Assembly: GCA_905178155.1 (NCBI GenBank)
Contig: CAJINV010000001.1
Location: 10,844,311-10,908,310, forward strand
DNA: 64,000 bases
Direction: 5' to 3'
Origin: Amoebophrya sp. A120
Lineage: Eukaryota > Protista > Dinoflagellata
Below the pieces are notes generated by a model. It was given only the letters and a program-made list of their open reading frames with translations. It ran no database searches and was not told where the DNA came from. Made by a program: the position numbers and the translations under genes. Below, one piece after another: positions 36,226 to 61,374 of this stretch (positions are counted from its first letter, which is position 1; every line of letters begins with the position of its first letter).

Positions 36226-39200
36226 ATGGATTTTCCAGTAGAAGGAAGTACTCGAACTCGACGCAGGAAGGTCCCCCTCCTCTCCGCCCCATTTCTCTGG
36301 GGGAGCGCACAGCTTGCGGCGTACCTGGTCATCTCCCATGTCGTTACCTCATCCATCCCGGCGGCATCGTACTCGCTGCCGGTGCGCGTCGGCGATCTGG
36401 TTGCGGTCCGAGGGGTGCACGACGGCTCCCTGTTCGAGGTGATTGAAAAACAGGGGAAGGATTCCTGCACGGTGCAGTGCCTACACACGGACAAAGTGAA
36501 CACGGAGAACTGCCGGCTGTTGGAACCCGTGCGCCCTCTGTGGCGGCCCGCGGACGCGCACTGCCTCCGGCTGGAGAAGCCGGCGCCGACAAACGCCTAT
36601 TTTGACCCGCCTCCCGCGGCGGATCCGGATTCTGCGAACGAGGACGGGAGAGGACCACCCGACCATGGGGACGGTGCAGCGCACGTGGCACGGGTGGTGG
36701 CGGAGAGTGTCGCCCGGCCGCTGCAGGTCTGTCCGAGCAGCGCCACCAAGGACAGTATGAGGACGGATCGAGTGCTGAGCGCACTGGCCCGAGCGCACGC
36801 GGCCGACAAGGCTGAGGAGCAACGTAAAGCTGGAGGCGACGCGCCCGCGCCGGTCAGAAGTGGTGGTGGTGCTACTATCAAGGTCGTGGATACGCAGCTC
36901 TTTCGGACCATGAACGCACTATCCGCTGACATGCAGCGCCGGCTGGGGATTGCGACGAACGCCTTGATGTCGTCGCAGAGGTCAGGTGGTAGCTACGCCG
37001 GAGTTCTGGGGCCGCTGGGTATGGGACTGAACAAGCCGCGGGCCAAAAGCGAAGCCGAGATAATGAATGCGTGGCTCGATACGTATCTAGTGGCCGCCGT
37101 GGAGGAAGTGATGCAGCAGCAGGCCGCCGTTGAAGGAAGTGCGGTCGCTTCCGTGGCGGCGCTCAAGTGGGTCGAGTCTAGAGGGCGGGGAAGTGGATCA
37201 TCGCTACAAAGTTCGCGGGAGGAACATCAAGTGCAAGTGGACGCACTCGCACAGCTGGCGCGGACATCCCACGGAGCAGGCTCCGCGGGGACAACGCCGG
37301 GAGTCTCTGCGTCGCCGACGGGGCGAGTCGCAGCTGCCTTCGGGGTGATGCAAGCCCGCGCAGACAGGGAGCGGCGGACTACTGTCGACTTCCAGTCTAA
37401 TAGGTATCTACGCGTCTTTTTTTTGCGTTATTCGATGAATATCTACCTGCTACAACCTTTGCCGTTCTGCCGGGTCCGAGATTTATTTCTGATTTGACTT
37501 CCTCTGATCAACCATGTTGCATTCGCCTTGGCATAAACTACACTAAGTAAGCGCTGCGGTTGAACATGCGAAAGAAGTATTGACCATGCATAGAACCTTC
37601 ATCACTTTGATCGCACTAAAACAGATTTCACGAAACTCGCGCCCCTCTGCCAAACGAGGAATTATTTGCCGTCAAAAACTTGGAACGGCGGAAGGCGTGG
37701 GAATATGGACTTGAAGATTATATCGAGCGCGGAAGTGCCGTAGCGGGACATGACTCAGCCTTGACCGAACCACCACACGCTGCGAAAGTGCTAACGGTAT
37801 CTCCAAACTACGACGCAAACACTGGCGAGTTCAAGGGTGTCGGTCTCGCCTGGGTTCTTGCGAGAGAGAGTGGGCTACAACTACAACTGCCTGCCGCGGG
37901 CGGGGACGATCCTCGTGGAATTCTGTACAGGAACGCGCAATTGTGGGCGTTAGCGGAGTCTTCAAACCCGGCGAAACTGCCCTACGCGGTTGTCGACGAG
38001 GAGGAGGTATCAAATGTAAAAATGTCTGGGTCTGGAAGATTGCCAGGTTTGTCATGCACATTTTGCATGACTCCTGATGTCTGTGATGCATGCCGTAGCA
38101 TCACAGATTTTGTGAGGGCTTCCTGATGCCTATACCGCATGACAAATGCTCTTTCCGCGTAGCAAAACTTGGACTCTCTTTGCTGCTCATGCGATACAGA
38201 TTTTTTTAGAATCCAAAATCAGCATGACAAGTTGGATTCTTCCAGACCCAGACATTTTTACATTTGATAGGAGGTGGCGCGGCAGTTTGGCGCGGGCGCG
38301 GTGTCCCACTTTTTCAACAACGACCTCCGGCAGATGCGGGACCAGCGTCTCAGCTACGTCCAAACCGGGTACTGGAACCAGAATCGGGGAAGCGCCTCGC
38401 TGTTCCCACTGCTGATAGTGCTGATCGTGCTGGCCAGTCTGGGCATCCTGTTCCAGGTCTCGCTGCTCGTGCCCCTGGGAAAGGACCCGGAGGTGGATCC
38501 CGCCTGGATGCGGGAGGCCGCCTTGTGGGAGATGTGGCGTGCGGAAAATCCGGACGAGGAGTGCGAAAGCATCGCGGACGTGAAAAAGCGTCTGGAGGAA
38601 TTCAGATTCAAGCTCGAGAGCGAAAGCAAGGGAGTTGTACCAGACACGACGACCGCATCTACTTCTTCACATCTCGGAAACCCGTCGGAAGTGCAGCCGG
38701 TTGTTCCCAGTACGGCGCCGGTCGAAAAAAACCAGGTGGACGGGAACACCAGTCAGGAAAACCAGGAGGACTTCCCGGAGCTGCGGTCGGAGGAGGATTT
38801 TCTGCAGCCGAAGCTGTCCAACTTGAAGCCGTCTTCCAAGCGACAGCACGCACTGACGGCGGAGGAGAGCGAGTTTCTGGGCAAGCAGGTGGCGGCGTTC
38901 CTGGAGGATCAGGACGTCGAGGGGCGGTTCGAGCGCTCCAATTCGGGGACGACGGACTCGGAGCTGGGCGGGCACAAGGGGCTGGCGAAACAAAACGCCG
39001 TGAAGAATGCAACCGTCTGTGGGGACAAGGGGCAGGAGATGCGCGAGGCCGCGCTGAAGGCCGCGAGAGGCCGCCACGCCGGCATTTGGTGCGACCGCCG
39101 CAAGCGCCGGCCCTGGGCCAACCGGTGGGGCACCGGCGGTGGCTCGGATCATCAGCAGCCGGGAGTCGTCGTCCCGGGCTCCTCCCCGACGGGGTCGGCG

Positions 39201-42200
39201 ACCGAAAACAGCAATGGCGGGCTCCTGTCCGACTTCCACTCCGCGAACAAGAACCAGCAGGTATCCTGAGTAAAAACGTACCCACGCCAGAGTCGGGATG
39301 GGGATTTTGCAACACAAACCTAGGAGTTTTGTGAGTCACGCATGACAAGTTTCAGTCCGTAAGGTAGTGCAAGTTAGCAAGGAAAGCCGCATCACAAATC
39401 GATCTGCTGATCCTGTTTACAGCATTACAAGTTCCCAAACACGATTGAAAATGCCTGTCATGGGGTTGCGCATCACAAATGTTCCTGTCATGGCAAATCT
39501 GCATGACAACTCTGGTGTGGGTACGTTTTTACTCAGGATAACAGGTTACCAGCTACAAACCGGCCGGGCACGAGGTGCAGATCGCCTACGACCGTAACTA
39601 CCCGCCGGCGCTGGCCTACCCGCTGCCCGGGGACGACGACCTGTCTTGCTGGTCGGATTTTGGCGAAGAGTCTCCCAAGCGGAACAAGGCCCCCCGGTCG
39701 TCGACCGATAGCGACCAGCTGCATTTCACCGGCAGGTAAGTAATATGCATATACATTGGGCTGTTGTTCTAGTGTATGACTTTTGATGCTTTTCCACCAT
39801 CTTCAAGGGTCATTGTCCTTTGGAACTTACTAGATGATTGACATTCATGATCTTTCATGTCAGTCATTGTCCCATGTTGGAGTAGTTGACGCTGCTCCTG
39901 TTGTTGGTTGTCACTGGTCTTTGTCTTTCTAGAGCATTCATTGCTTGAAAGTCCCTACAATGCCATTCGTTACTGCATCAAAAATAAGTCGTTGGGGAGG
40001 TGCACTTCGGGCACACTTAGTCGCATCGAAAGATGACGCGCCACGCTTTTGTCATGTAGTTCATGTGAACCTCAGTAAAAAAAAAATCTAAACGAATTCA
40101 TTGACATGATCTTCAGGTCTTCGAATCATGTGGATTCCTGTGTGCCACTGTACTGCGGTTTTGGGGACCACGAAGACTCGCAGGAAATAGGCACGTCCAG
40201 CGCCAGCAGTGTGATGGCGGACTTTCATCGCGCCGGAAACAACGGAAACCTTAGCTCAAGCAGCAGCAGCGCGAAAGACCTGTTCTGGTCGGACTATCGG
40301 AACTCAAAACTACTGGTGAACAAGCGAGACGGCATATCCTGCGTAAAAACGATCCCAGTTATATGTAGTGAGGTCACCGAACGGTTCTAACCGGGGAGTT
40401 TTTTTGCCATGTCCCGTGAAAAACGACCGTCAGTTTTCAAGCGGTCGGAAGCGTTTTTTGACATAAAAAATTTTTAATTATCAAGCGGTCTGTGCTTTGC
40501 TGTCAAACAAGCCCGGTCGTAAACTATCGATTCGCACTTGATAAAACGACGCAGGGGAGCCGGCAAAAGGGGCGCCCTTCTGAGGCGCCCGCCGCCTTAG
40601 TTTCTGGCGATTTGGGGCGCCCAAAAAGGGGCGCGCAAAAAACGCGCCCAAAATCAGAACAGCGAAACAGCATGGCACGGCCGCGATTTCGGAGCATTTT
40701 GGACGGCCGCGAAAGCGGCCGCCTTTTCGCCGGTTTCAGAGCCTGGGAAGCTTTGCAAAAAGCGCCGGCGTGAAAAATAAAAACGCGAAAAAGAAAAAGC
40801 GGCCCGCACGCGCAAAGCCAATCCGCATGCTATGGGCCCGATTTTTCTTCGCTTTTTGGGCGCCCCCCGTGGCACCCGGATCGGCCCCATAGCATGGGGG
40901 CTGGCTTTCGGGAAGGAATTTCGGGAATTTGCCAAAATTTGCGATGTTTCCCAAGTGGCCGCCATACCGTGCGGCATAACGTTACTCGCGGTGGTATGGT
41001 GAGCCCATAAAAAGCAAAGCCGCGGCCAAGGCTGCGGTCGGCAAAAAAACGCCCACGACCTCACTACCCCCGCCCCGGCGGCTATATTTGGTACCCGATT
41101 GTCAACAACTACACGGATTTATATGCGCAAACAAACTCCCGGCGAGCTTTGCGGCTTGCTAACGCATGAGGACACGACACGAGCTGGATTTGTAGCATAG
41201 TCGTGTCCTGCTCCTGTAGCTAATCTGGCCGCATAACTACACATCCACGGCCTCATCCTGATATTGGAGTTGTACATTTGTACAAAGTTGCTGGTTCCAA
41301 ACAACTACAACATGTTGACTAGTACGAATAGACTAAAGAGCCGCAACAGAAACAAGCATGCGAGTATGTTGCTGCTTAAGTTAGGGCAAATGAGATTATA
41401 CATTATACATATGATATACGTCATGAAAAACCTTGGGCGGGGACGTTTTTGCTCAGGATACGGCACACGCGGGTCCGGTTCTGACGAATTGGAGCCTTTC
41501 CCTGAGGCGGACGAGGAGGACTTGGAAGATTTCCCCGACCTCGACGAAAATTCGGAGTGGGCGGACCCTGGGCAGGGCCCCGGGTACTCCGTCCGCGCGG
41601 TGGACCCGGCGGCGATCCACAGCGATCTGATTTTCTCCGGCCGAGAGCTTCCCGAGGACTGGCACCCGCCTGCGGGTCCGCCGTCGGCCGCGTATCATGA
41701 TGTGGAACGGGAGGGACGAGGTGGTGCTCCTGCTCGTGGGAACAAGCTGATGAGTGGGTCGTCCGACGAAATAGACGATGGCGAGCTGGAGGATTTTCCA
41801 GAAATGGAAGATTGCCCCGACAACGAACTAAACTTGTTTGCTCCTCCTGCGAACGGTTCGAATTTCGACGACCAGCCGGTGTCGTCGAGGAGGTTCCACA
41901 ACCTGAGCGGGTCGGACGACGCAAATTTGGAGGACTTTCCGGGGATGGAGGAAGAGGAATACGACCACCTGTGCGCCGGCCAACATCTCGCACGGGGCAA
42001 CAACCAGGAGCAACCGCTGTTGAACCAAGTTGGCGAGACGCAAAGTCAAGCGGCGGCTACTTCCGGGACAATCAGAAGTACGTTGAATAACAAAATGGAT
42101 GAAGAGGTCGATGACTCCGTGCTAGGTGATGCGAAAAATGGTCGCCGGGCGCCTCATTTGCAGCGCAGTCGCAGTTTCCCGCTGCCCCAGAGGAATCCTG

Positions 42201-44207
42201 GGGATAGTACGGACAGCGCGACATCAGCGGGGAAGCAGGATGATGAGCTGTACTTCCAGAGGTTCAACGAGCGCTGGAACAACGGTAAAAGCCAACAGAA
42301 GTTAGCTATGCCACCTCTGGCGCCCAGCCTGATGAGCCGAAATCTGCTACCGAAGTCCGGGTTAGACAACGAGCGCAGCGCGTCTACCATTCACGAATCG
42401 CACAGCTCTTTGGAGCAGTTTCCCGGTAGCGGCGTGGACAGCTTGCAGAAACGCGACGTGGCCGAACTGCCGTCCCCGATGGAAGACCGCAAAAACGTGG
42501 AAAGCCTGCCCGGGTCGCACGTGTACTCCGACCCGCCGGCGCTGCAGGAACGGGACAACATGTCCTTTGTCGTCGCAGACTACCATCAAGGAAGCTCCTC
42601 CTCGTTCGGGGGAAACCATAAAACGGACGTGAACCTCCAGTATGAAGACCATGACAACGGAATGAAGATGTTGCAGCAGCCCCGAGGAACGGACTGGGCC
42701 CACGTGCCGGCCAAGGATCTAGGCTTTGTGGCACAACAAGAGGAGCAACAAGTAGCCTCCACTCCTAGCACGGCGGGAGTTGTTGTTGGGCCTCAGAACA
42801 AAACACCAGTGGAAACACCAGTGGCTCCAAGTAGAACGCCGGCAGCAGCTGCTGCGGTGCCGCAAGTTCTAGTACAACAACATCTTCCCCAAACTACGAG
42901 CCGTAAGTACTCGAAGCCGCTGGAAACGGGCGCGGATCATGCTTTCGCGGAGAGATCTACCGACACCGGAGGGAGCGGGGGCCCTCGGACGAATAGCACC
43001 AGCACCTCCAACGGATCGCCCACCGGAGTCCGGGGGCACACGAACGAAGACGCCGTGTACGCGACTGCGAATCTTCCCCCGAAGCGCCGCCTGACGCGGT
43101 CCTATCAAATGTAAAAATGTCTGGGTCTGGAAGAATGCAACTTGTAGTGCGTATTTCAGAACACAGAAAAGTCTCTCATGCATACGTAGCAAAAGCTCCC
43201 ACTTTTTGCCAGCAAAATAGGGGACTTGTCATGCGGATTCGGCATTGCGGAAGGTTCTCGAAACCTGTGATGCTAGAGCTTCCATGCCAGACCTTCTCTG
43301 TCATGCAAAAACAGCATGACTCTTCCAGACCCAGACATTTTTACATTTGATAGGTCCATCAGCGACACCAATCTGTACGGCAGCGGAGCCGCTGCGGGGA
43401 AGGAATCCGAGAGGCGAACGAAGTGGAGGGATGCCAAACAAATGATCAAAACAGAGAAGGCCAAGAACGCGGTCAAGCAAGCGAATGCTGTCACGCACGT
43501 TGAAAATAAATGGAACGCCACCACCGTGCCGGCGTTGGAGACGTCGATGGTATGATTTAAGTACTATATTTGTACCGCTGAAATAAAGATGACGCGGGTA
43601 CTCATATAAGTAAGTCAAAGTTATGTAAAAAACTTCTAACACCGATGATCATGAACATGATTGCGTCTTCAAGAGCAGTGAAAGTTCTCCATTCTATTTG
43701 ACTTTCGTTCGTGACATCAACTCCGTATCATGCTAGCGGCACGTTCGACCCTGTTGAAAGCAAAAGGTGGAAACCCCAACCCCGCAACATACCGTCTCAC
43801 AAGGACGAGTTGCGTGTATTAAAAATAGGTGAACGTCGACTGAATAACATTAATAAACCAAATGAAACTTCTATATACAGGTGCAGCAAGAGTACTCGAA
43901 CCGCGAGGCGGGGCTGGAGAACGACAAGCTGCGACACGCTGCAGGTCTCGATACGGACTCGGACAACTTTGATTGTCGAACGGACAGCACGGAGGAGGAC
44001 GACGTTTCGGACCGGAGCAGCCTGATGTACTACCAGCAGGCCCGGTACCATCGGTTCGGCCACAGTGGCGAAAGCGGGGATTGGCACTACAGCGAGGGCG
44101 GGCCCTACGGGGAACGCGCCCGCAAGGCCTTCGTCATGTCCCTTGTGACAGAGAAGACAGAAGAGCTCTACGAGATTCTCGACCGTTGTGGCATCCACGT
44201 GCGGTAA
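36226..44207 (+). CDS. Large hypothetical membrane protein with acidic LEDFP repeats; 7 introns, 4 of them TIR introners
   Basis: Exons 36226-37403, 37625-38006, 38274-39260, 39545-39735, 40117-40334, 41466-43098, 43354-43549 and 43881-44207 all join in frame. Hydrophobic N-terminal segment, a TM helix (LFPLLIVLIVLASLGILF) and four (E/N/D)LE(D/P)FP repeats at 41487-41945. Confidence 0.75.
38008..38269. mobile_element. Family B TIR introner (B1), GT-AG intron 38007-38273
   Basis: Perfect TIR TATCAAATGTAAAAATGTCTGGGTCTGGAAG / CTTCCAGACCCAGACATTTTTACATTTGATA; TSD GGAGG; removal gives VDEEEVARQFG. Confidence 0.95.
39262..39540. mobile_element. Family A TIR introner (A3), GT-AG intron 39261-39544
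   Basis: TATCCTGAGTAAAAACGTACCCACGCCAGAGT / ACTCTGGTGTGGGTACGTTTTTACTCAGGATA; TSD GCAGG/ACAGG; interior homologous to A1. Confidence 0.93.
40335..41460. mobile_element. Family A-type introner (A5, 1126 bp) carrying a nested family F element
   Basis: TATCCTGCGTAAAAACG...GGGCGGGGACGTTTTTGCTCAGGATA; perfect TSD CGGCA; removing 1131 nt gives KRDGTRGSGSDEL. Confidence 0.9.
40361..41067. mobile_element. Family F element (short copy) nested in the left TIR of A5
   Basis: ATAT-GTAGTGAGGTC...GACCTCACTAC ends; 40361-40540 is homologous to 54357-54537, and 40541 onward to 55888 onward. Confidence 0.82.
43103..43352. mobile_element. Family B TIR introner (B2), GT-AG intron 43099-43353
   Basis: Perfect 31-bp family B TIR; TSD GGTCC; near-identical to 47811-48061; removal gives RLTRSISDTNLY. 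Confidence 0.95.
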
Positions 44208-45436: not shown

Positions 45437-46774
45437 ATGACGGAAACTATCGCAACACGCCCCGCGCCGGTGGGTTCCTCCACCGTGGCGTCAACTGAGC
45501 AGGCATCATCCTCCAGCAAGAACACAGCCGTCGTTGCAGACGCAGAGGCACTGCGGAAGAAGCGGGTTCTGGAACTCTGCATGAACTTTGTCCAGCTCCT
45601 CCGAAGAAGACGGTTCAGTTTTTTTGTTGCGCATACAGTAGTTTTCGTTTCGCATACAGTTTCGCGGCTGGGCGAGAACAAACATGCAAAAGGGGGCGCA
45701 TGACTCGAGACAGAAGTTCTTTCACTTTTAAAGACAAAGAAGGTTCTTGCCGCGTGTACTTCTGGATGACCATCTTGTTGTCGCGGAAGAATCCCTGTGT
45801 TTCGTAGTGTTGTCGAGCGTGTAAGTACTTCCAATCAAACGACTAAGGTTCAAGCCCGCGTTGGAGATGGCTGGGGAGATTTTAAAGTTAGAGCCAAACC
45901 ATCCGCAAGTGGTTATCCTGAGTAAAAACGTCCCCACCCCATAGTTGTCATGCAGATTTGCGATTACAGGAAGATTTGCAATGCGCATCTCCATGAGCGG
46001 CATTTCCAATCGCATTTTGGAATTTGTAATGCTGTAAACGCGATGAACAGATGGATTTGTGATGCGGCTGCACTTGCTAAACTGCACTACAGGACGGACT
46101 GGAATTTGTTATGTGTTGCTCCCAAAGCTTCTGGGTTTGTGTTGCTAAGTTCCCAAGTTGACTATGGGGTGGGGACGTTTTTACATATGATAGTGGTACA
46201 GCACCTGGACATGCTGGAGGAATTGGCAGCGTCGTCTTCGGAGTCCGACGCGGGTTCCAGTTCCTCCTCCTCGTCCGATTCCGAGGAGGACGAGCCCGAG
46301 CTTCACTACGTGGCCACTCAGCAGTTCAACCCACAAGACTATCAACATGAATTGAAGTAGTGTCCCCACCACCGGCCCACATGGCAAAGTTTTCAAATAA
46401 AGACTTTTGGTCCGCGTCTTGCACGTTTCTTTGAGCGAAGACTATCTCTGCTTCAGATTCATCTAGGTGCGCGAAGCAGCTCCTACATGACAAGTCCCCG
46501 CCCCGGTGCTGCGCCGTTCGGCAACATAGACACTCGCTAATATTCTTGCTTGCAAGAAATGTGTCATGCTGATAAAAAATGCCAGGTCGTGGCAAGTGTT
46601 TTCATAATTGGGAACTGTTGCAATGCAAACATTTTCCCTTTCATCTGGGGTGGGGGCGCCTTTCAATTTGATAAAGACGGGGAAGCTGGCTCCACCCGCC
46701 CGCCCTCGGTCGGCGGGGCGGCGTCGGATACAGGGACCGCACCCTCGGAGTATCCCGTGCGGCGCCTCGACTAG
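45437..46774 (+). CDS. Small ERICH2-like (TPR-like helix pair plus acidic Ser-rich tail) protein; 3 introns
   Basis: Exons 45437-45612, 45848-45913, 46198-46339 and 46679-46774 give NFVQLLRRRRFKPALEMAGEILKLEPNHPQVVQHLDMLEELAASSSESD...NPQDGEAGS. The ERICH2 resemblance is from memory. Confidence 0.65.
45914..46192 (-). mobile_element. Family A TIR introner (A4), inverted relative to A1/A3
   Basis: TATCCTGAGTAAAAACGTCCCCACCCCATAG...CTATGGGGTGGGGACGTTTTTACATATGATA; perfect TSD GTGGT; interior is the reverse complement of the A1/A3 interior. Confidence 0.92.
46340..46673. mobile_element. TIR introner with A/B-hybrid termini
   Basis: TATCAACATGAATTGAAGTAGTGTCCCCACCACC...CTGGGGTGGGGGCGCCTTTCAATTTGATA; perfect TSD AAGAC; removing 339 nt keeps the frame. 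Confidence 0.85.
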
Positions 46775-53743: not shown

Positions 53744-56700
53744 ATGTGGGGGCTGGCAATCGTCTTTCTCGGGTCGCCGCTGGTCGTTCCACGACAGGCG
53801 CAGAAGCAAGGTCCTGTCGTCCGCGGGTTGGTGGTTGACAACGCGGACCAGGGTGCGCTCGCTCCCGGTGTACCAGACCACCACAGCCTCAGAAAAAATA
53901 CGAATCCCGAGGAAGACCCAGACTCTTGGGAGACGGACCCGGACGAATTTGAACAAGCGAGACTTCCCCGCGACGCGACGCCCAACCTAACGAGTCCGGG
54001 TGGTGCCGCGGCCCATTTTGAGCAGGAGAAACTGTACCACGCCATCCTACACCCCGAGCACAGCTTTGAGCAACGTGGCATGACTTTCGTTGACCTCGGA
54101 CTGGGGCCGAACCGTGCTGCTGGAGGCTGCCTGGGTAGTTGCCTCGGGGGGCTCATGAGTCGCGTCGGGATGACTGAGGCTCACTCTGCGGAGGCTGCCG
54201 AGTGGGACCACAACCACTTAGAAAACCTCAAAAGCCACGCAGAACAAGGACAGACGAGCAAAACTGCTTCCCTTCTGTTGCGTAAAGTGCAACAAAATCT
54301 GCGAGAAGCACTCACCGGGCAGAAAGCGGAAAAAGCGACGCAACAAGGTGGTCGTGATATGTAGTGAGGTCACGAGCGTTCTAATCTAGCGGCTTTCTTG
54401 ACAGCCCACACGCAAAACGACCGGAAGTTTGCAATCGGCCGGAAGTGTTTTTGGACAAAAAGGGTTTCCATTCATCAATCGGGTGCGGCCTTGTTGTCAA
54501 ACAAGTGCGGGCGAATTCTATCGATTGCCGATTGATGTGGCAGCCAAAGCGTGCCCCGCGCGCAAAGCGCTCTTTGCGAGATGCTCATCCATCGCAAACG
54601 CGGCGCGAGTAGGCTCTGCTGTTGCCATATGGGACAGACTCGAGGGCACGCAATCACTCGCAAAGCCGGGTAGTTCCACTGCCGTTTGGCCGCCAGAGAG
54701 CGGGCTTCGGAAAAGTTGGCCAATTTTTCGAAAAAGCAGAAAAATCTGCGCAGCCAGTTCGGAGGACAGGTTAAAAAGCGGGCTTTTTCGGGTTCGCCCG
54801 ATGTGATTCCGAAGAAAGGGGCCCGATGGTTGGGCTGCGCCCGATGTTGTGGAGCGTTTGGCTGCGGAAACTGCGTCACCTCCAGGCCGCTGCGGCCGAT
54901 CTGTTTGCGCACAAAAAAAAAGCGCACTGCTTTGCACAATACAAGTGGCTCACGACGGACAAAGTCGAGTGATTTTGTTCGGGGTCCTGTGTTCAAAGTC
55001 CGGTCGATGGACCCTCGCCGATGATTTTCGTCTCTTCTTTTTCTGGCCGGTGCTTATTTTTCGAGCTTGACCTCGATGTCTTGCCGACCACTGATGTCCA
55101 CCTTTTGCAGTGTCCACGCACAAGCGGGATCGTCGAACGCGGGATGGGGAGGGGCCCCATTTGTTTGCCGCGGCGCGAGGCCGCAAGCTTCGGGGCCACG
55201 TCTACCACCAGAAGTAGTCCGCCCGGGGGCCGCTCCATGGGTCTGTGTCTGAAGCCTAGTACAGGCATCCGCAAAAAAGGAAACGCCCGCACTTTTTTGC
55301 AGATATGAACCCAAAAAAAACGGCCGACTTTCTGTATTGCCCGAAAGCCGATGCTGGGCACCCGAAAAGCCACTTTTTTTTCCAAAATGCAAAGCCGCCC
55401 GATCGAAAGTGGCCGCTGGAAGATGATTTTAGAAATTTCCGCGACTCCATGCCATCGGGATTGCATGAGCAAGAATGGAGTCAGATCCTGCGGAGGCGTG
55501 TCACACCCGCACGGCTTCCGCCCTCTGTGAGGTTCAAGGCGGAATCCCTTCCCCGTATTGGAATCGGCCGACTAACTTGGGTGGCCCAAATGGGCATCCT
55601 GAAATGAAGGGAATTGCGCAACTTTTTCAAGTTTGTGCATTTTTTCTGGCTAGCGTGCCCCCGTGCATAACGGTATGCGCGACGGAATGCTGCTCGCCGA
55701 AAAGCGCAGTCTTTTCTTTGTGCGACACAGTGCTGCCCGTCAAGTTTGCGGTCCAACACTGCAGCCCGCCTCGGGCCGCGCTCTCATCCTCTGACCAGGA
55801 GGTCAAGGAATGCGCGGCAGCCTTCGCGCGGACTAGGGTGCTTCGCACACTTTCGGTTATCGATATCGGCTTCCGGGCGCGACCTTCATAAAACGACGCA
55901 AGGGAGCCGGCAAAAGGGGCGCCCATCTCAGGCGCCCCGCGCACCTAATTCCGCCGATATGGGGCGCCGAAAAAGGAGTCGCCAAAAAAAGTGGCAAGAG
56001 TAGAAAAACCGCGAAGCTGCATGCTATGGGCGTCATTTTTGCCTGCTTTCGGAGGTCGCAAAGCCGGCCACCAAGGTAAAAGAAAAAAAGGCAAACGCCG
56101 CCAAAATTCGAAGGCGGCTCCGCATGCTATTGGCCCGACTCTGGGGGCCCGTAGGGCGGGCCCTGGCGGAGGCCCGGGAGTGGCCATAGCATGCGGGGGG
56201 GCGCTTGCGCTTCTCTTCTGGAGGCAGCAGGGGCGTGGCTTTTCAGCCAAGAAAACCAAAAAGCGCGAGCGCGATCAGAGGCAGCACGCCAAGCGGCATG
56301 CGATGGGCCCGATTTGGGGGGCCATAGGGCCGACCGTGGCGGACGCCCTGGAGGGGCCATAGCATGCTGGGAAGGTTTTCGGGCTTTGGAGACGGGGAGA
56401 TGGCGACTTGTGGCCATGATACCCACCGCCCCCGAGACCATGCGCTGGGGGCTTGCAGTTAATTAAGAAAGCCGCTATGACCTCCTCACTACCGCCGCGG
56501 ACGCGGCTGCTATTGGTAGTAAAAGCATGAGCACGAAGATGGCAGCGCAGACACTCAAAGCAATTGCCCGAAAAGAAACCTTCGAAAAGTTTTCAAGTGG
56601 AGCGGTCAAGAGCTTTGCCGGCGACTTTTGGATGGCTCTAAAAAGTGTGCCCGCGCTATCTGGTTCCGCAAATGGTCTCCAAGTGCTAACGTCGCATTTC

Positions 56701-58988
56701 CATGAGCCTGGCGGGCTCGGGACGTGGATGCGCAAAGAGCTGCAAGTGCATTTGATCGAGATGGTCGCGGAGCAAGTTCTACATTACAGTTTTCGAAGAA
56801 AACGATGCGCACGATGAAGCTCTGCGCAAGGTTTTTGAAAAGCCGGACAACGTCGGCGAGACGCACGCCCCGCGGGGGCACAGCAGACGCGACAAACATG
56901 AAGCGCTAGCAAAACACAGAGGCAAGCGGGGCGATCGACATCATGAGAGGAAAGAAAGCAGAGCTTCGGGCGGAGCGTGGTCCCAACACCTCAAGACGGC
57001 CCATGTGCACAAGACGACAAGCAGCGCGAAGTTTACATTTTACAATGAGGTCAAAGATTGCCCCAAGCCCGGCACCCCAGCCCCCGACGCGGATGCAATT
57101 CCAATTTTTTGCTTTAAGCCGTTGTACAAAAAGGAAGGCGGCGTCCGAATCAACCAACTCCGTATTCGCGCTCCCGACGGGAACGCGCGTAATGCGCTCA
57201 CGATCCCCAATAAGCTCCTCACTGAAGCGCACAATCTACTTCACAAAGACCATCTGGGCACGACGTTGCTGAGCTTGCTGTCGGATGCAGTCAGCGACTA
57301 TTTTTTAATTCTGGTTTGGGAGGAATTGAAGGACGCAATCGTGGTATTCTTTCAGGACGTTGCGCAAGGAATCCTCGGCGCCATAATTGGCAGTCTACCG
57401 GGCTTTGAATCCTTGATTCGACACGTCACGAATGCAGCTAATGCGCTGATGCTGAAATTCATAGCGCGGAAGATTATGGAGGTGGTTAACACCGTGCCGG
57501 AAGCTGTGCTTGAACGCGGGATTCCAGACTTTATAATGAGTGAGACTGTTACGCACCAGCTCGAATCCTTCAATTGGGTTGCAATCGCAGTGCTGGCCTT
57601 GAAAGAACCCAAGTTGCTGGAAATATGGGGGCGCAAAAGTTGTATTTGCCGAAAGTTGTGAAAAGCCTTTTGCTGTAGTCAAAAAAATGCGTATAGCCTG
57701 CCACTATTGAATACCTAACGGGGCTGCTAGCTTACTGACGGCGCCTCTCAGGAGCTAAAGAGGAAAATCTCCGCGCTGCTGCTCCGCGGACTTGCCTCTG
57801 ATCGCCCCGAAAGGCTGGAGGTGCTTCAGCACGGCCTCATGCAGTCCAGCGGCTAGGCAATGCGTTTCACTTTCAATCTGTACAAGCCGGCCGGAGTGGA
57901 GGGCGCACATGTAAACGGCCGCGGCTGCGTTTCCGCTTGGCCCTACTGCCTCGCAGCTGTGCGCGCGTGTGTCGGCACTTGCGCGCGCTCTTTGACCCTT
58001 TTGGAGAGGGGCCGGTAGGGCCATCGCGATTCGAAGAAAAACTGGCCGGCTCGCTTTTTTTCTAGGGTTCCGGGCGGCCCTCCGGCCGCCCCTCTTTGGG
58101 AGGGTTCCGGAAAGGCCTGCGCGGCTAACGAATGTGCGCGGAACCCGCTAGAGACGACAACGCCAGGGCCTGCGTAGGTATCTCGCGGGGCGCCCGCAGC
58201 TTCTAGGCCTTGATCCATGCCATGGCGACAAGCATCTGCAGCAAGAGCGCGACCAGGGAACCGAGGCAACATATTGCGAGCGCCCAGCGCTTTTGCAATA
58301 AAACACTAACCACAAAACGACCCGCAGCGCCCCGGCGCCCCCCCCGCGTCAGTCTTGCTTCTCTTAGCCCTTAGCGCATTTTTGCTTTTGGGAACAAACA
58401 AGCTGGCGAAAACAAACGGCGCGCAAGCCAGCCCCCCGCCCTTGTCCGTGCGCACTTTGCCAAGCTAGGCGCCGCGGAAAAATGCGCGCAGAAAGTTTTT
58501 CACGGCGTGCGACTTTTGCGACGCGATGCAAGAGCTGGACGAGCAGCGGCGCGGCCGACGGGCAGCCGGCTGCACCATTGCCACTCGCTACGAGATGGGA
58601 CACATTTGTCAGCGACCATCTGGACCCGTCGAAGGTAGCGCCCGTCGTCGTCGACGATCTGGCAGCGAATTCGCTTGCGCTTTCCGTGGAAGCCGCGCTG
58701 TGCCATGTGATTGGAGACAGCTTTCTAATTTTGCTCAAGGATTTTGGAGTAGCGGATCTGATGGCGATCATCACTCTAGCGCGGCCACTGGTGCGTCGGT
58801 TCGCAGAAGAGGTGGGCTGGCAATTCTTTGGCGCTTTGTACAAGATGAAAGTCGGTCAGGCCGGCCTGCAGCCAGGACTCGTCGGCGGCGCTCGGAGCGC
58901 GATCACCACGAGCGTCAAGGCATGGATGGAGTCACAGCGCTTCGGAGTCTACGTCCACAACGTCAAAAACGCGGGCGCCGGAGTATAG
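53744..58988 (+). CDS. Putative secreted protein interrupted by two large TIR elements and one apparent frameshift (possibly a pseudogene)
   Basis: Signal-peptide-like MWGLAIVFLGSPLVV. Segments 53744-54356, ~56492-56780, ~56789-57631 and 58521-58988; both element removals are in frame. 3' end uncertain. Confidence 0.55.
54357..56492. mobile_element. Family F element (long copy, ~2.1 kb), no TSD
   Basis: ATAT-GTAGTGAGGTC...GACCTCCTCACTAC ends; homologous to 40361-41067; repeated GCATGCTATGGGCCC-like motifs; no convincing ORF; removing 2135 nt rejoins QQGGR to AADAAAIGSKSM in frame. Confidence 0.82.
57632..58520. mobile_element. 889-bp TIR insertion (family G), no TSD
   Basis: Ends CGCAAAAGTTG.../...CGACTTTTGCG; exact removal joins LLEIWG to TRCKSWTSSG in frame. 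Confidence 0.65.
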
Positions 58989-59344
58989 ATACAATGAACG
59001 CCCTGCACCGATCAGGAGGAGTCAAGTCGACCCACAGCCGCCGAGGGACCTCCAGGAGACGCCTAGTAGCCTACTAAGTAAGGAAGCGCTTGCCCTTTAT
59101 TTCATCATCGAACCGAGGAGGGGCGCCATCGATAACCCCTCACAGTTTCGACGATGGTGGGCCGGCAATGGTTGCGCCCCCCCGAGGCGCCCGGCATTGT
59201 AAGTTCTGGCGATCCATCTGGCGCGCCCAAAAAAACCGCGCGCGAGGCCAGAGGCGCGCAATCGCATGGCCTGGCCGCGCGCGGTGTTGATGGTGGCGTT
59301 TTTTTGCGGCCGCCCGCGGATTTCTTCTTTTTTCCCCCGGGCCA

Positions 59345-59562
59345 CCAGCCTGCGAAGCTTCGCGGGAAGGGCGCGGCGCCTTCCGAAACATGTCGGGCAA
59401 AGAAGATAGAGCGAATCAGGCCCGTGAAGCCGGCCGGCGGGGTGTTGGCCCGCGGGGGCAGGGCAGGCCCCCAGCCTGCGGAGGCCCGCGGAAAGGGTGT
59501 GGCGCCTTCCAAAAAACGTCGGGCGAAGAAGATAGAGCGCATCCGGTCCGTGAAGCCGGCCC
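59345..59562. repeat. Diverged direct repeat, 126-bp period (~90-bp matching blocks)
   Basis: CCAGCCTGCG...AAGAAGATAGAGCG...CGTGAAGCCGGCC at 59345-59436 and 59471-59562. Confidence 0.85.
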
Positions 59563-59565
59563 GCC

Positions 59566-59655
59566 AGGGCAGGGCAGGGCAGGGCAGGGCAGGGCAGGGC
59601 AGGGCAGGGCAGGGCAGGGCAGGGCAGGGCAGGGCAGGGCAGGGCAGGGCAGGGC
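59566..59655 (+). repeat. (AGGGC)18 pentanucleotide microsatellite
   Basis: 18 perfect AGGGC units, counted directly. Confidence 0.97.
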
Positions 59656-59863
59656 AGGCGCGCGGGCAGCGGTTGACCTTCACGCCGAGCCCCGCCCTCT
59701 TACTTGCTGCCCTTGTGTGGTTACCCCTCGGCCCACGTGCTCTCGTTGTGCCTTGTGTTGCTCTGAAAGAATGCGTGGCCTTCGTTGCCCGCCCGGGCCG
59801 GTGGCTCTCCCGCCTAACCTTGGCCCATGGGCTTGCCGACCTACCTTCACGCCGGTGAATTCT

Positions 59864-61374
59864 CATCCTGAGCAAAAACACCCCCGCCCCAGAGTCCCAG
59901 CGAGAAGCACGGCGCGGATTCGGTTACCAAATCCAAAAAGAAGCAAGGGCGCGCGCATTTTGTGGGCTCCATAGATAGCATGCGGAGAAGATTCCAGCCG
60001 CCTCCCAATGCCGACCATGGCGCGGCGGACGGCTACCAAAAAGCTTCGGACAATGCAAACTCTTGCGATTTCAGTAGTGTGCTGGTGCGCAGACAAGCGG
60101 CCGGCAGGGTGCTCCATAGATGGGCAGCGCCCCTCTTCGTTTTGTCGACGTTGACAGAGGAACTCCGCCAGTTCCTTGGCTATTAGACCGTTACACGACC
60201 AGCAACCGAGCGCAGAGGCTCGGGCGGGCTGAACGCGTTGCGCCTTGTGTGTAGAGTGGGGCCAGGTCGTGACTCCGGTCCTTTTTAGTTGCGTTCAGTC
60301 CCTGCGCGCTCCTTGGAGACTGCGCTTCTTGAAACACGGGCCAGGTGCTGTCAGGCTTGGCTCTAAATCAGGCCACTTTCCTTGTGATCGTCGCCGTCGG
60401 ATGTAAGTCGTTGGGCGGCATGGGCACCTAGATTCGTTGCGATTCTTCGCCAGTTCGTGTGGTTTGGAATGATTTCGCGGGCCGCCGGGCTCGATTTCTT
60501 GATCTGCCTTGCATTGGCTAAAAACGGCGAGCCCCGAGGGCGCCATGGCTGCCCCCGGGGTTCCGCAAATTATGCCAATCCCCCTGGTATGGCCCCCCTC
60601 GCATGATCAGCCAGAACCCGCGGGGCCGAGCGACCGTAGCAGCGCCATGCCGCCGGGAGTTGGGCCCCCTGTCGCCCTCGGGGGGCCCCTAGCGTGCGGC
60701 CTCGGGCGCGCCCTTTTTCATTTTGCGAAAGCAGGCAGCTTCATGGGCCAGAAGATAACTAACAGCGAACCCCGGCGCCACGGCCGCCCTCTGGGTTCCG
60801 GCCGGCTGGCAATTATGCACATCCGCATGCTATTGCCCCCCGTGCTGTATCACACACCCATACCCCGCCGGGCCTTGGCCGCGCCATACCAACCTTCCGG
60901 ACTGAAGTCCCCTCCCTTCCTCGAGGGAGGCCCATGGTGTGCGGCTTCGGGCGCGTTTTTTCTTTTTTGCGAAGGCCGGCAGCCTCGAGGGCTGGCATAA
61001 TTCGCGGGGCCCCTTGCGTGGCCAGGCCGCCGGGGCTCGCAGTCCATTTTCTAAGCACTCAAGAAATTGGCGAAGATGAAGATCTCAACTGTCAGAAAAA
61101 GCGAAGGGGGCGCGGCACTATGACGCACCCCGGCCGACCGATTGTCTGCGACCGAGCGTGCCAGAATGCCACTGCAGTCGGAAGGATTTGCATCGCTTCA
61201 AGCTTTTCAGTAACCGCCGCGCCATTGTCGGAATAAATTGGGCAACGGCTGTCATTCTAATCCGCATGCCATGAGGGCCACAAATTGCGCGCATTCTTTT
61301 TTTGGATTTGGTAACCAGGCCGACGCCAATCCCCTCGACGCAGCTCTGGGGCGGGGCTGTTTTTGCTCAGGATA
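59864..61374. mobile_element. 1.5-kb element with family A-type tips and ~110-bp TIRs, containing a nested inverted-repeat unit (~60509-61062)
   Basis: CATCCTGAGCAAAAACACCCCCGCCCCAGAG...GGTTACCAAATCCAAAAAG pairs with TTTTTGGATTTGGTAACC...CTCTGGGGCGGGGCTGTTTTTGCTCAGGATA; no clear TSD. Confidence 0.8.

Follow-up and report, generated by a model that had tools for sequence, protein, structure and literature searches.

When an intron-like element has inserted into another one, do both leave the transcript as a single block, can the inner one leave on its own, and must it do so before the outer one can be cut? This question is raised by a locus of Amoebophrya, a parasite that kills marine algae, and was followed in a stretch of 64,000 nucleotides from Amoebophrya sp. 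A120 (the window; all positions refer to it unless a locus is named). The window is dense in elements with terminal inverted repeats (TIRs) that start with TAT and end with ATA. One of these, A5, interrupts the coding sequence of a host gene and itself contains an insert, F. Assembled contigs point to a twintron-like nest at this locus, built from two non-canonical introners that each belong to a known kind, and they give evidence for a form from which the inner element has been removed. At one named locus and in many other F copies, it becomes testable in which order the elements leave and in which form the RNA is excised, and inside-out splicing of nested introners may offer a way into a poorly understood splicing system.

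The host gene and removal of the outer element

The host exons and the outer element comprise the following features:

40117–40334, forward strand: upstream coding exon of the host gene, residues about 913–985 of protein P0001 (tblastn of P0001; spliced contigs 40114–40334 in runs X3 and X6)
40330–40334, forward strand: left CGGCA target repeat, 5 nt (sequence)
40334–41464, forward strand: outer intron, 1131 nt, AT..GC (register deduced from elements A4 and F; one of seven that fit)
40335–41460, no strand assigned: A5, an introner with TIRs, of the TAT...ATA family; length 1126 nt including F, body single-copy (sequence; depth in X1)
40335–40351, forward strand: left TIR core of A5, 17 nt, with four further pairs possible past a bulge, at 40353–40356 (folding)
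41092–41460, forward strand: remaining A5 body, retained in the putative intermediate (455-nt contig)
41444–41460, forward strand: right TIR core of A5 (folding)
41461–41465, forward strand: right CGGCA copy (sequence)
41466–43102, forward strand: downstream coding exon, residues about 985–1531 of P0001, same transcript (tblastn; 6377-nt contig of X5)

Transcript evidence was taken from Logan contigs, which carry neither read counts nor strand, of four runs (X3, X4, X5 and X6) that are RNA-like according to the tool's guess and represent two samples of one study, X3, X4 and X5 sharing one sample. The DNA-like run X1 stems from a sample other than that of X3 and X6 and behaves as DNA, since the intron at 39890–40048 is covered there like exons. 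In X3 and X6 both neighbouring upstream GT-AG introns are skipped and the depth at 39890–40048 is 0, so that genomic DNA is not evident in these runs. In a run of raw reads (X17) two reads could be placed, neither of them informative.

The exon following A5 agrees with P0001, a protein of 1703 residues from Amoebophrya sp. A120, at 100% over 544 residues, and a second exon of the window matches P0002, likewise labelled Amoebophrya sp. A120. The public annotation may have been built on these RNA-like runs, and P0001 is therefore not counted as independent support. In the tblastn map the P0001 gene covers 36226–44204 with eight exons, and at least four of its introns are TIR elements (38008, 39262, 40335 and 43103). 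Pfam returned no family for P0001, P0002 and eight frames inside F2, a relative of F described below. Searches with two host exons gave no homologue outside A120, so that there is no empty orthologous site for comparison.

The initial annotation had recognised a perfect CGGCA target site duplication around A5 and had stated that removal of 1131 nt restores the open reading frame. The repeat is indeed present at 40330–40334 and 41461–41465, and the removal joins an 85-codon frame to a 548-codon frame, a joint that also occurs in P0001. The expected junction of 40334 with 41466 was found as joint 40328>41460 in the contigs of all four RNA-like runs (depths 135.8, 107.6, 174 and 28.8). In X5 a single contig of 6377 nt crosses it, such that the transcript neither ends before 40335 nor leaves the downstream exon to a separate gene. 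The frame in which A5 is left in place runs into a stop. In full, the direct repeat around A5 measures 6 nt (40329–40334 and 41460–41465); six letters fit either side of the joint, and seven cut registers reproduce the P0001 junction, none of them with GT-AG or GC-AG borders. Borders of the minor AT-AC type would require a shift by +1, which is excluded by the range of the joint and by P0001.

A5 is a non-canonical introner. In the passages describing them (Farhat et al., 2021; PMC7789003), A120 introners have non-canonical borders, an inverted repeat of 8–20 nt that starts with TAT and contains a run of A, and a direct repeat of 3–5 nt. Most borders are blurred by direct repeats. A5 fits these border and repeat features: it carries an inverted repeat in the range of 8–20 nt at its ends with the TAT start and the A run, is bordered by CGGCA on both sides, and is absent from the transcript with non-canonical borders (4/4 RNA-like runs, 0/7 registers GT-AG). 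Over the 17 positions of the core, 15 Watson–Crick pairs, one G-U pair and one mismatch are formed, with a binomial chance of 7e-8 at fixed register. The ends of A5 are common to other elements of the window; its body is single-copy at 90% likeness, and the depth over 41162–41320 in X1 is 28.6, i.e., exon-like, so that no A5 paralogue is seen. A further element of the A family, 1511 nt in length (59864–61374), has a long TIR and an imperfect target repeat; within it, concentric inner inverted repeats (60008/61234, 60081/61157 and 60539/61031) make further nesting likely.

The inner element and its copies

The inner element, the intron derived from it and its longer relative are located as follows:

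40361–41090, forward strand: inner intron as excised, 730 nt, AT..TG, position unambiguous (joint 40360>41091 in X3 and X6)
40364–41091, forward strand: F (F1), 728 nt, between TA 40362–40363 and TA 41092–41093, no coding role seen (comparison with L001–L004 and F2)
40365–40375, forward strand: left subterminal inverted repeat of F, 11 nt, 1 nt from the left end (pairing P 0.997)
41057–41067, forward strand: right subterminal inverted repeat of F, 24 nt from the element end (sequence, folding)
41067–41081, forward strand: C-rich tail of F with a weak GC hairpin (copy comparison, folding)
54357–56518, forward strand: F2, relative of F within a coding exon, longer and diverged, AT..TA (frame, comparison with P0002)

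The start of the insert 26 nt inside the left end of A5, as originally described, is borne out by the sequence. Its right end, placed at 41067 in that description, had to be moved, as the element reaches 41091 and the RNA-like contigs in question lack 40361–41090. Nor does F part the TIR of A5 from a C-rich CCCCCGCCCC tract (41067–41076). Four other F copies in unrelated flanks run through this tract to the ...TTTGG-TA end, and the tract therefore belongs to F itself; it formed part of the search pattern for copies, whereas the shared end and the unrelated flanks did not. With the tract assigned to F, the TIR core of A5 is not split from a continuation of its own.

Copies of F were drawn from the window, from one metagenome scan that provided four loci (L001–L004) and from run contigs, while a viral scan yielded none. 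The metagenome copies are 92–97% like F1. Left ends read TA-TGTAGTGAGGTC in five of five cases and right ends TTGG-TA in all six (F1, L001–L004 and the diverged F2). F1 differs from all of L001–L003 in 8 of 723 columns, and at four of these also from most X1 copies; such private changes would fit an old insertion. The summed depth of F in X1 is about 100–400 times that of single-copy sequence, which is a hint of a large family rather than a count. All but the exonic F2 appear to lie inside other introns (A5 and those of L001 and L002; L003 and L004 likely represent plain introns), so that nesting beside a TIR is not special to A5. The six copies all appear in sense orientation, judged for two from annotated proteins and for four from the direction of the longer open frame in a single flank, the opposite flank disagreeing or being tied in L001–L003. 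The A family, unlike these six F copies, occurs in both directions, A6 (45914–46192) being inverted with respect to A1 and A4.

Locus L001 contains an A-family introner with a perfect 5-nt repeat (411–1438), within which a full copy of F lies about 155 nt from the end; by eye, we take its host exons to resemble a PG-rich repeat protein. At L002 (772–1700), F is located at the inner edge of another element's perfect 35-bp TIR, a layout like that of A5.

Cutting F2 opens 334 + 99 codons, and in the annotated protein P0002 it is removed in frame, 54356/56519 being the sole cut pair, of those tried, that gives P0002. The 5' cut is identical to that of F1 and the annotated 3' cut lies 3 nt further. 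F2 measures 2.16 kb, of which about 1.36 kb (54527–55883) are missing from F1; this extra stretch points either to a nested insert or to a longer parental form. When F1 and F2 were aligned globally, the central part gave no usable alignment. The window holds a third F-like internal segment, which is diverged (59149–59233, within about 59070–59700; 72%); a 126-nt tandem pair and then a GGCAG array come after it. The end of P0002 (about 56814) overlaps a 301-codon frame (56756–57661) in another phase (region 56516–57661), possibly owing to a missed intron or a frameshift.

A form lacking F and the order of removal

In X3 and X6, i.e., in two of the four RNA-like runs and in both samples, a 455-nt contig joins 40305–40360 to 41091–41489. 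Its order is exon, left end of A5, body of A5, exon, with no other letters among the pieces listed. An intermediate lacking 40361–41067 and retaining A5 had been predicted; it exists, albeit with ends that differ, as 40361–41090 is missing. The inner joint has a depth of 10.1 in X3 and 5.19 in X6, falls on the same base in both and shares no letters between its sides (no microhomology); the contig has 56 letters on the short side and unique exon at either end. X4 and X5 are without the inner joint and hold a contig from 41064 that carries the end of F (depths 5.29 and 6.13). Contigs that retain A5 amount to roughly 3–15% of the outer joint plus retained depth, a rough value in that contig depth is a mean over length. 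The F-less form contains stops and must therefore be either an intermediate or a dead-end product. The order of removal is unreadable from steady-state forms. The F-less form is likely a splicing intermediate of an inside-out route.

The inner joint is unambiguous and lies outside any selected reading frame, and it thus fixes a cut register, in which the 5' cut falls 1 nt ahead of TAT and the 3' cut 4 nt past an ATA. The same -1/+4 register turns A4 into a GT..AG intron within the range of the A4 joint in RNA, and on sequence grounds it gives GT..AG for A3 and the 38008 element (23 candidate pairs listed, several of them spurious). N-T donors account for 68–71% in the large A120 families fam1, fam18 and fam2 in the data consulted from PMC12130899. 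Pairing of TAT with ATA at the ends of F is not predicted in context (P of at most 0.02), and the register therefore appears as a sequence rule. The inner joint, with its fixed register, suggests that signals of its own suffice for an introner to be recognised, also where it lies within another intron.

Folding results depend on the chosen flank length. The predicted fold of F has -317 kcal/mol and brings its ends near each other, and the stem of F is predicted in every context with P of 0.99 or more. With F in place, the core stem of A5 reaches a mean P of 0.92–0.94 at flanks of 30 and 100 nt and 0.23 at 200 nt; in F-less RNA it is predicted at 30 and 60 nt and lost at 100 and 200 nt. In the full precursor, pairing is predicted between the C tract of F and the inner portion of the right arm of A5 (P 0.93–1.0), and the F hairpin is opened by it; this pairing would explain why the tract had been taken to resemble A5. 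When F is present, the four inner pairs of A5 are displaced by this tract (P 0.05 vs. 0.93). In nascent RNA without the right arm of A5, the F hairpin is predicted with P 0.83–0.84. The pattern of an open and a closed hairpin suggests a period for cutting F before the right arm of A5 exists, with a one-step exit thereafter. A longer A5 TIR upon removal of F was considered and discarded, as merely the four pairs left of F are regained. The initial annotation had posed a choice between about 17 bp of TIR being enough and a sequential removal; the sequential form occurs (2/4 runs) and the core, which is situated entirely to the left of F, is predicted to pair with F present, so that the two do not stand as exclusive options.

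As for the history, A5 would have entered the exon with a 5-nt duplication, and F would later have entered at a TA 27 nt inside A5. The excision signal of each element would consist of an end-joining stem together with the fixed -1/+4 register, counted from the terminal TAT and the matching ATA. F is finished 370 nt before the right arm of A5 is transcribed and could thus be cut first, after which the remaining 401 nt would be cut as an ordinary A-family introner. Were F still present upon arrival of the right arm, the A5 stem is predicted to form and the whole block would exit in one step. Judged by folding, removal of the inner element first is likely possible and probably not obligatory.

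We consider it fairly probable that the locus represents nested non-canonical introners with a main form lacking 1131 nt and a rarer form lacking the inner 730 nt, where inside-out removal can occur and is probably not required. A strict twintron, in which A5 is uncuttable until F is out because the tail of F pairs with the right arm of A5 or its bulk blocks the machinery, would account for the F-less intermediate in the contigs, for the displaced inner pairs of A5 and for an A5-retaining depth of 5–10, compared with 0 in the canonical neighbour intron, which suggests slow removal. It is nevertheless unlikely, given that nothing disrupts the 17-bp core, for which pairing is predicted even when F is there, and that in L001 the F copy sits far from the TIR of its A-family host element. 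An improbable explanation is a jump of reverse transcription over the F fold or an assembly artefact, with F as a passenger of an A5 that leaves in one step. The strong fold with its close ends and the low depth in two of four runs of one study would be in accord with it; the joint, however, has no shared letters and falls on the identical base in two samples, a jump between the TA repeats would more simply keep A40361, length and donor fit a listed family (fam26) of 32 annotated introns, and P0002 requires splicing of F2.

There is also little to recommend an F-less allele or cell line as the source of the F-less transcript, be it by lack of insertion or by excision from DNA. X1 does stem from a sample different from those of X3 and X6, and the joint would equal the empty site if the first base of F were a variable A or G and insertion always took place before GTA. 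The inner joint removes A40361 and keeps G41091, while among F copies the base before the left TA varies (A 2/5, G 3/5) and the right G is fixed (6/6). With the variable base dropped and the fixed one kept, the joint is likely not the pre-insertion site, and the scenario in which F begins with a variable base and always inserts before GTA is less likely. In X1, contigs run unbroken over 39515–40387 and 41066–43050, across both ends of the F piece, so that no branch indicative of an F-less allele is seen in DNA; this absence of the inner joint rests on the unbroken contigs, 15 of 56 joints being listed and rare variants being dropped from contigs. F1, moreover, carries private changes, and the end that contains F is present in X4 and X5, which share their sample with X3.

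Relation to known introners, twintrons and mobile elements

With regard to twintrons, the likeness of the A5/F nest to twintrons and stwintrons lies in an intron within an intron and in an inner-removed intermediate, as set out in the parts of PMC8393795 consulted. The difference is that those are group I, II, III or U2 GT-AG introns, whereas A5 and F are non-canonical. In the broad sense the locus conforms to a twintron, both joints being seen in contigs with a presumed order of precursor and product. According to the same source, the inner intron of a strict twintron breaks an essential element, and removal of the inner intron is often non-essential; in A5 the TIR core and the target repeat, the features examined, are intact, and on this basis the nest is not classed as a strict twintron or stwintron.

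F likely corresponds to catalogued A120 family 26, a match made by description, and as an introner it would thus be already known. In file 8 of PMC12130899, fam26 comprises 32 introns of 730 bp with a TIR of 10, donors gt:20, at:10 and NC:2, and acceptors NC:32. The family, which has a sibling in fam71, is listed among 58 A120 families as TIR DNA of unknown superfamily, counted from annotated introns, in the sections used (Gozashti et al., 2025; PMC12130899). F and its inner joint agree with this entry in the 730-nt intron, a TIR of about 10, a GT or AT donor, in keeping with G or A as the first base, a non-canonical acceptor and a short target repeat; F differs from the listing in being cut from another intron and in its subterminal right repeat. 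Motif searches in supplements (including file 3 of PMC12130899) found nothing. PMC7789003 uses the word 'nested' neither in its main text nor in its supplement, and its passages describing introners mention neither an intron within an introner nor intermediates. No report of nested Amoebophrya introners was found in the literature searched, subscription-only papers and figures in supplements being outside its scope.

According to PMC7789003, non-canonical borders are present in more than 60% of A120 introns, a search for U1 snRNA found none, and how these introns are spliced is an open question; our best guess for the catalyst would be this U1-less spliceosome. A bolder proposal holds that a non-GT-AG machine reads introners locally (N/TAT ... 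ATA+4/), exon context being unneeded, in a strictly inside-out manner, and that F is a one-way Helitron2-like element found sense-only in introns because it is cut first; we regard this as rather doubtful. If true, nested copies would provide hundreds of unambiguous junctions and natural intermediates with which to crack the mechanism.

The likeness of F to Helitron2/HINE elements may serve as a lead, by analogy. In the parts of PMC4067079 and PMC5148889 consulted, Helitron2/Helentron, HINE and DINE-1 elements have an inverted repeat close to the 5' end and about 20–40 nt short of the 3' end, with a small hairpin behind it, and are one-way; F is alike in the placement of its repeats and in its one-way structure. 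The asymmetric subterminal repeats of F are 11 nt long, shorter than the 12–15 nt given in that part of PMC4067079. A 3' hairpin is present in F1 and F2, with z values of 0.84 and -1.98 against shuffles; that of F is weak and, at z 0.84, does not outdo shuffled sequence in folding. Insertion differs, F being situated at R-TA and those elements at TT; instead of a TT insertion without duplication, TA flanks F on both sides (5/5 left, 6/6 right), a duplication of TA and an insertion into T^A being indistinguishable here. A Rep/helicase partner for F was not found by Pfam in the eight F2 frames, and none of the 18 mentions of helitrons in file 8 of PMC12130899 is from Amoebophrya. Four DNA contigs of X1 pass from the right end of an A-family element directly into the left end of F (joint 39540>40362), and F may also insert at the terminal TA of A elements.
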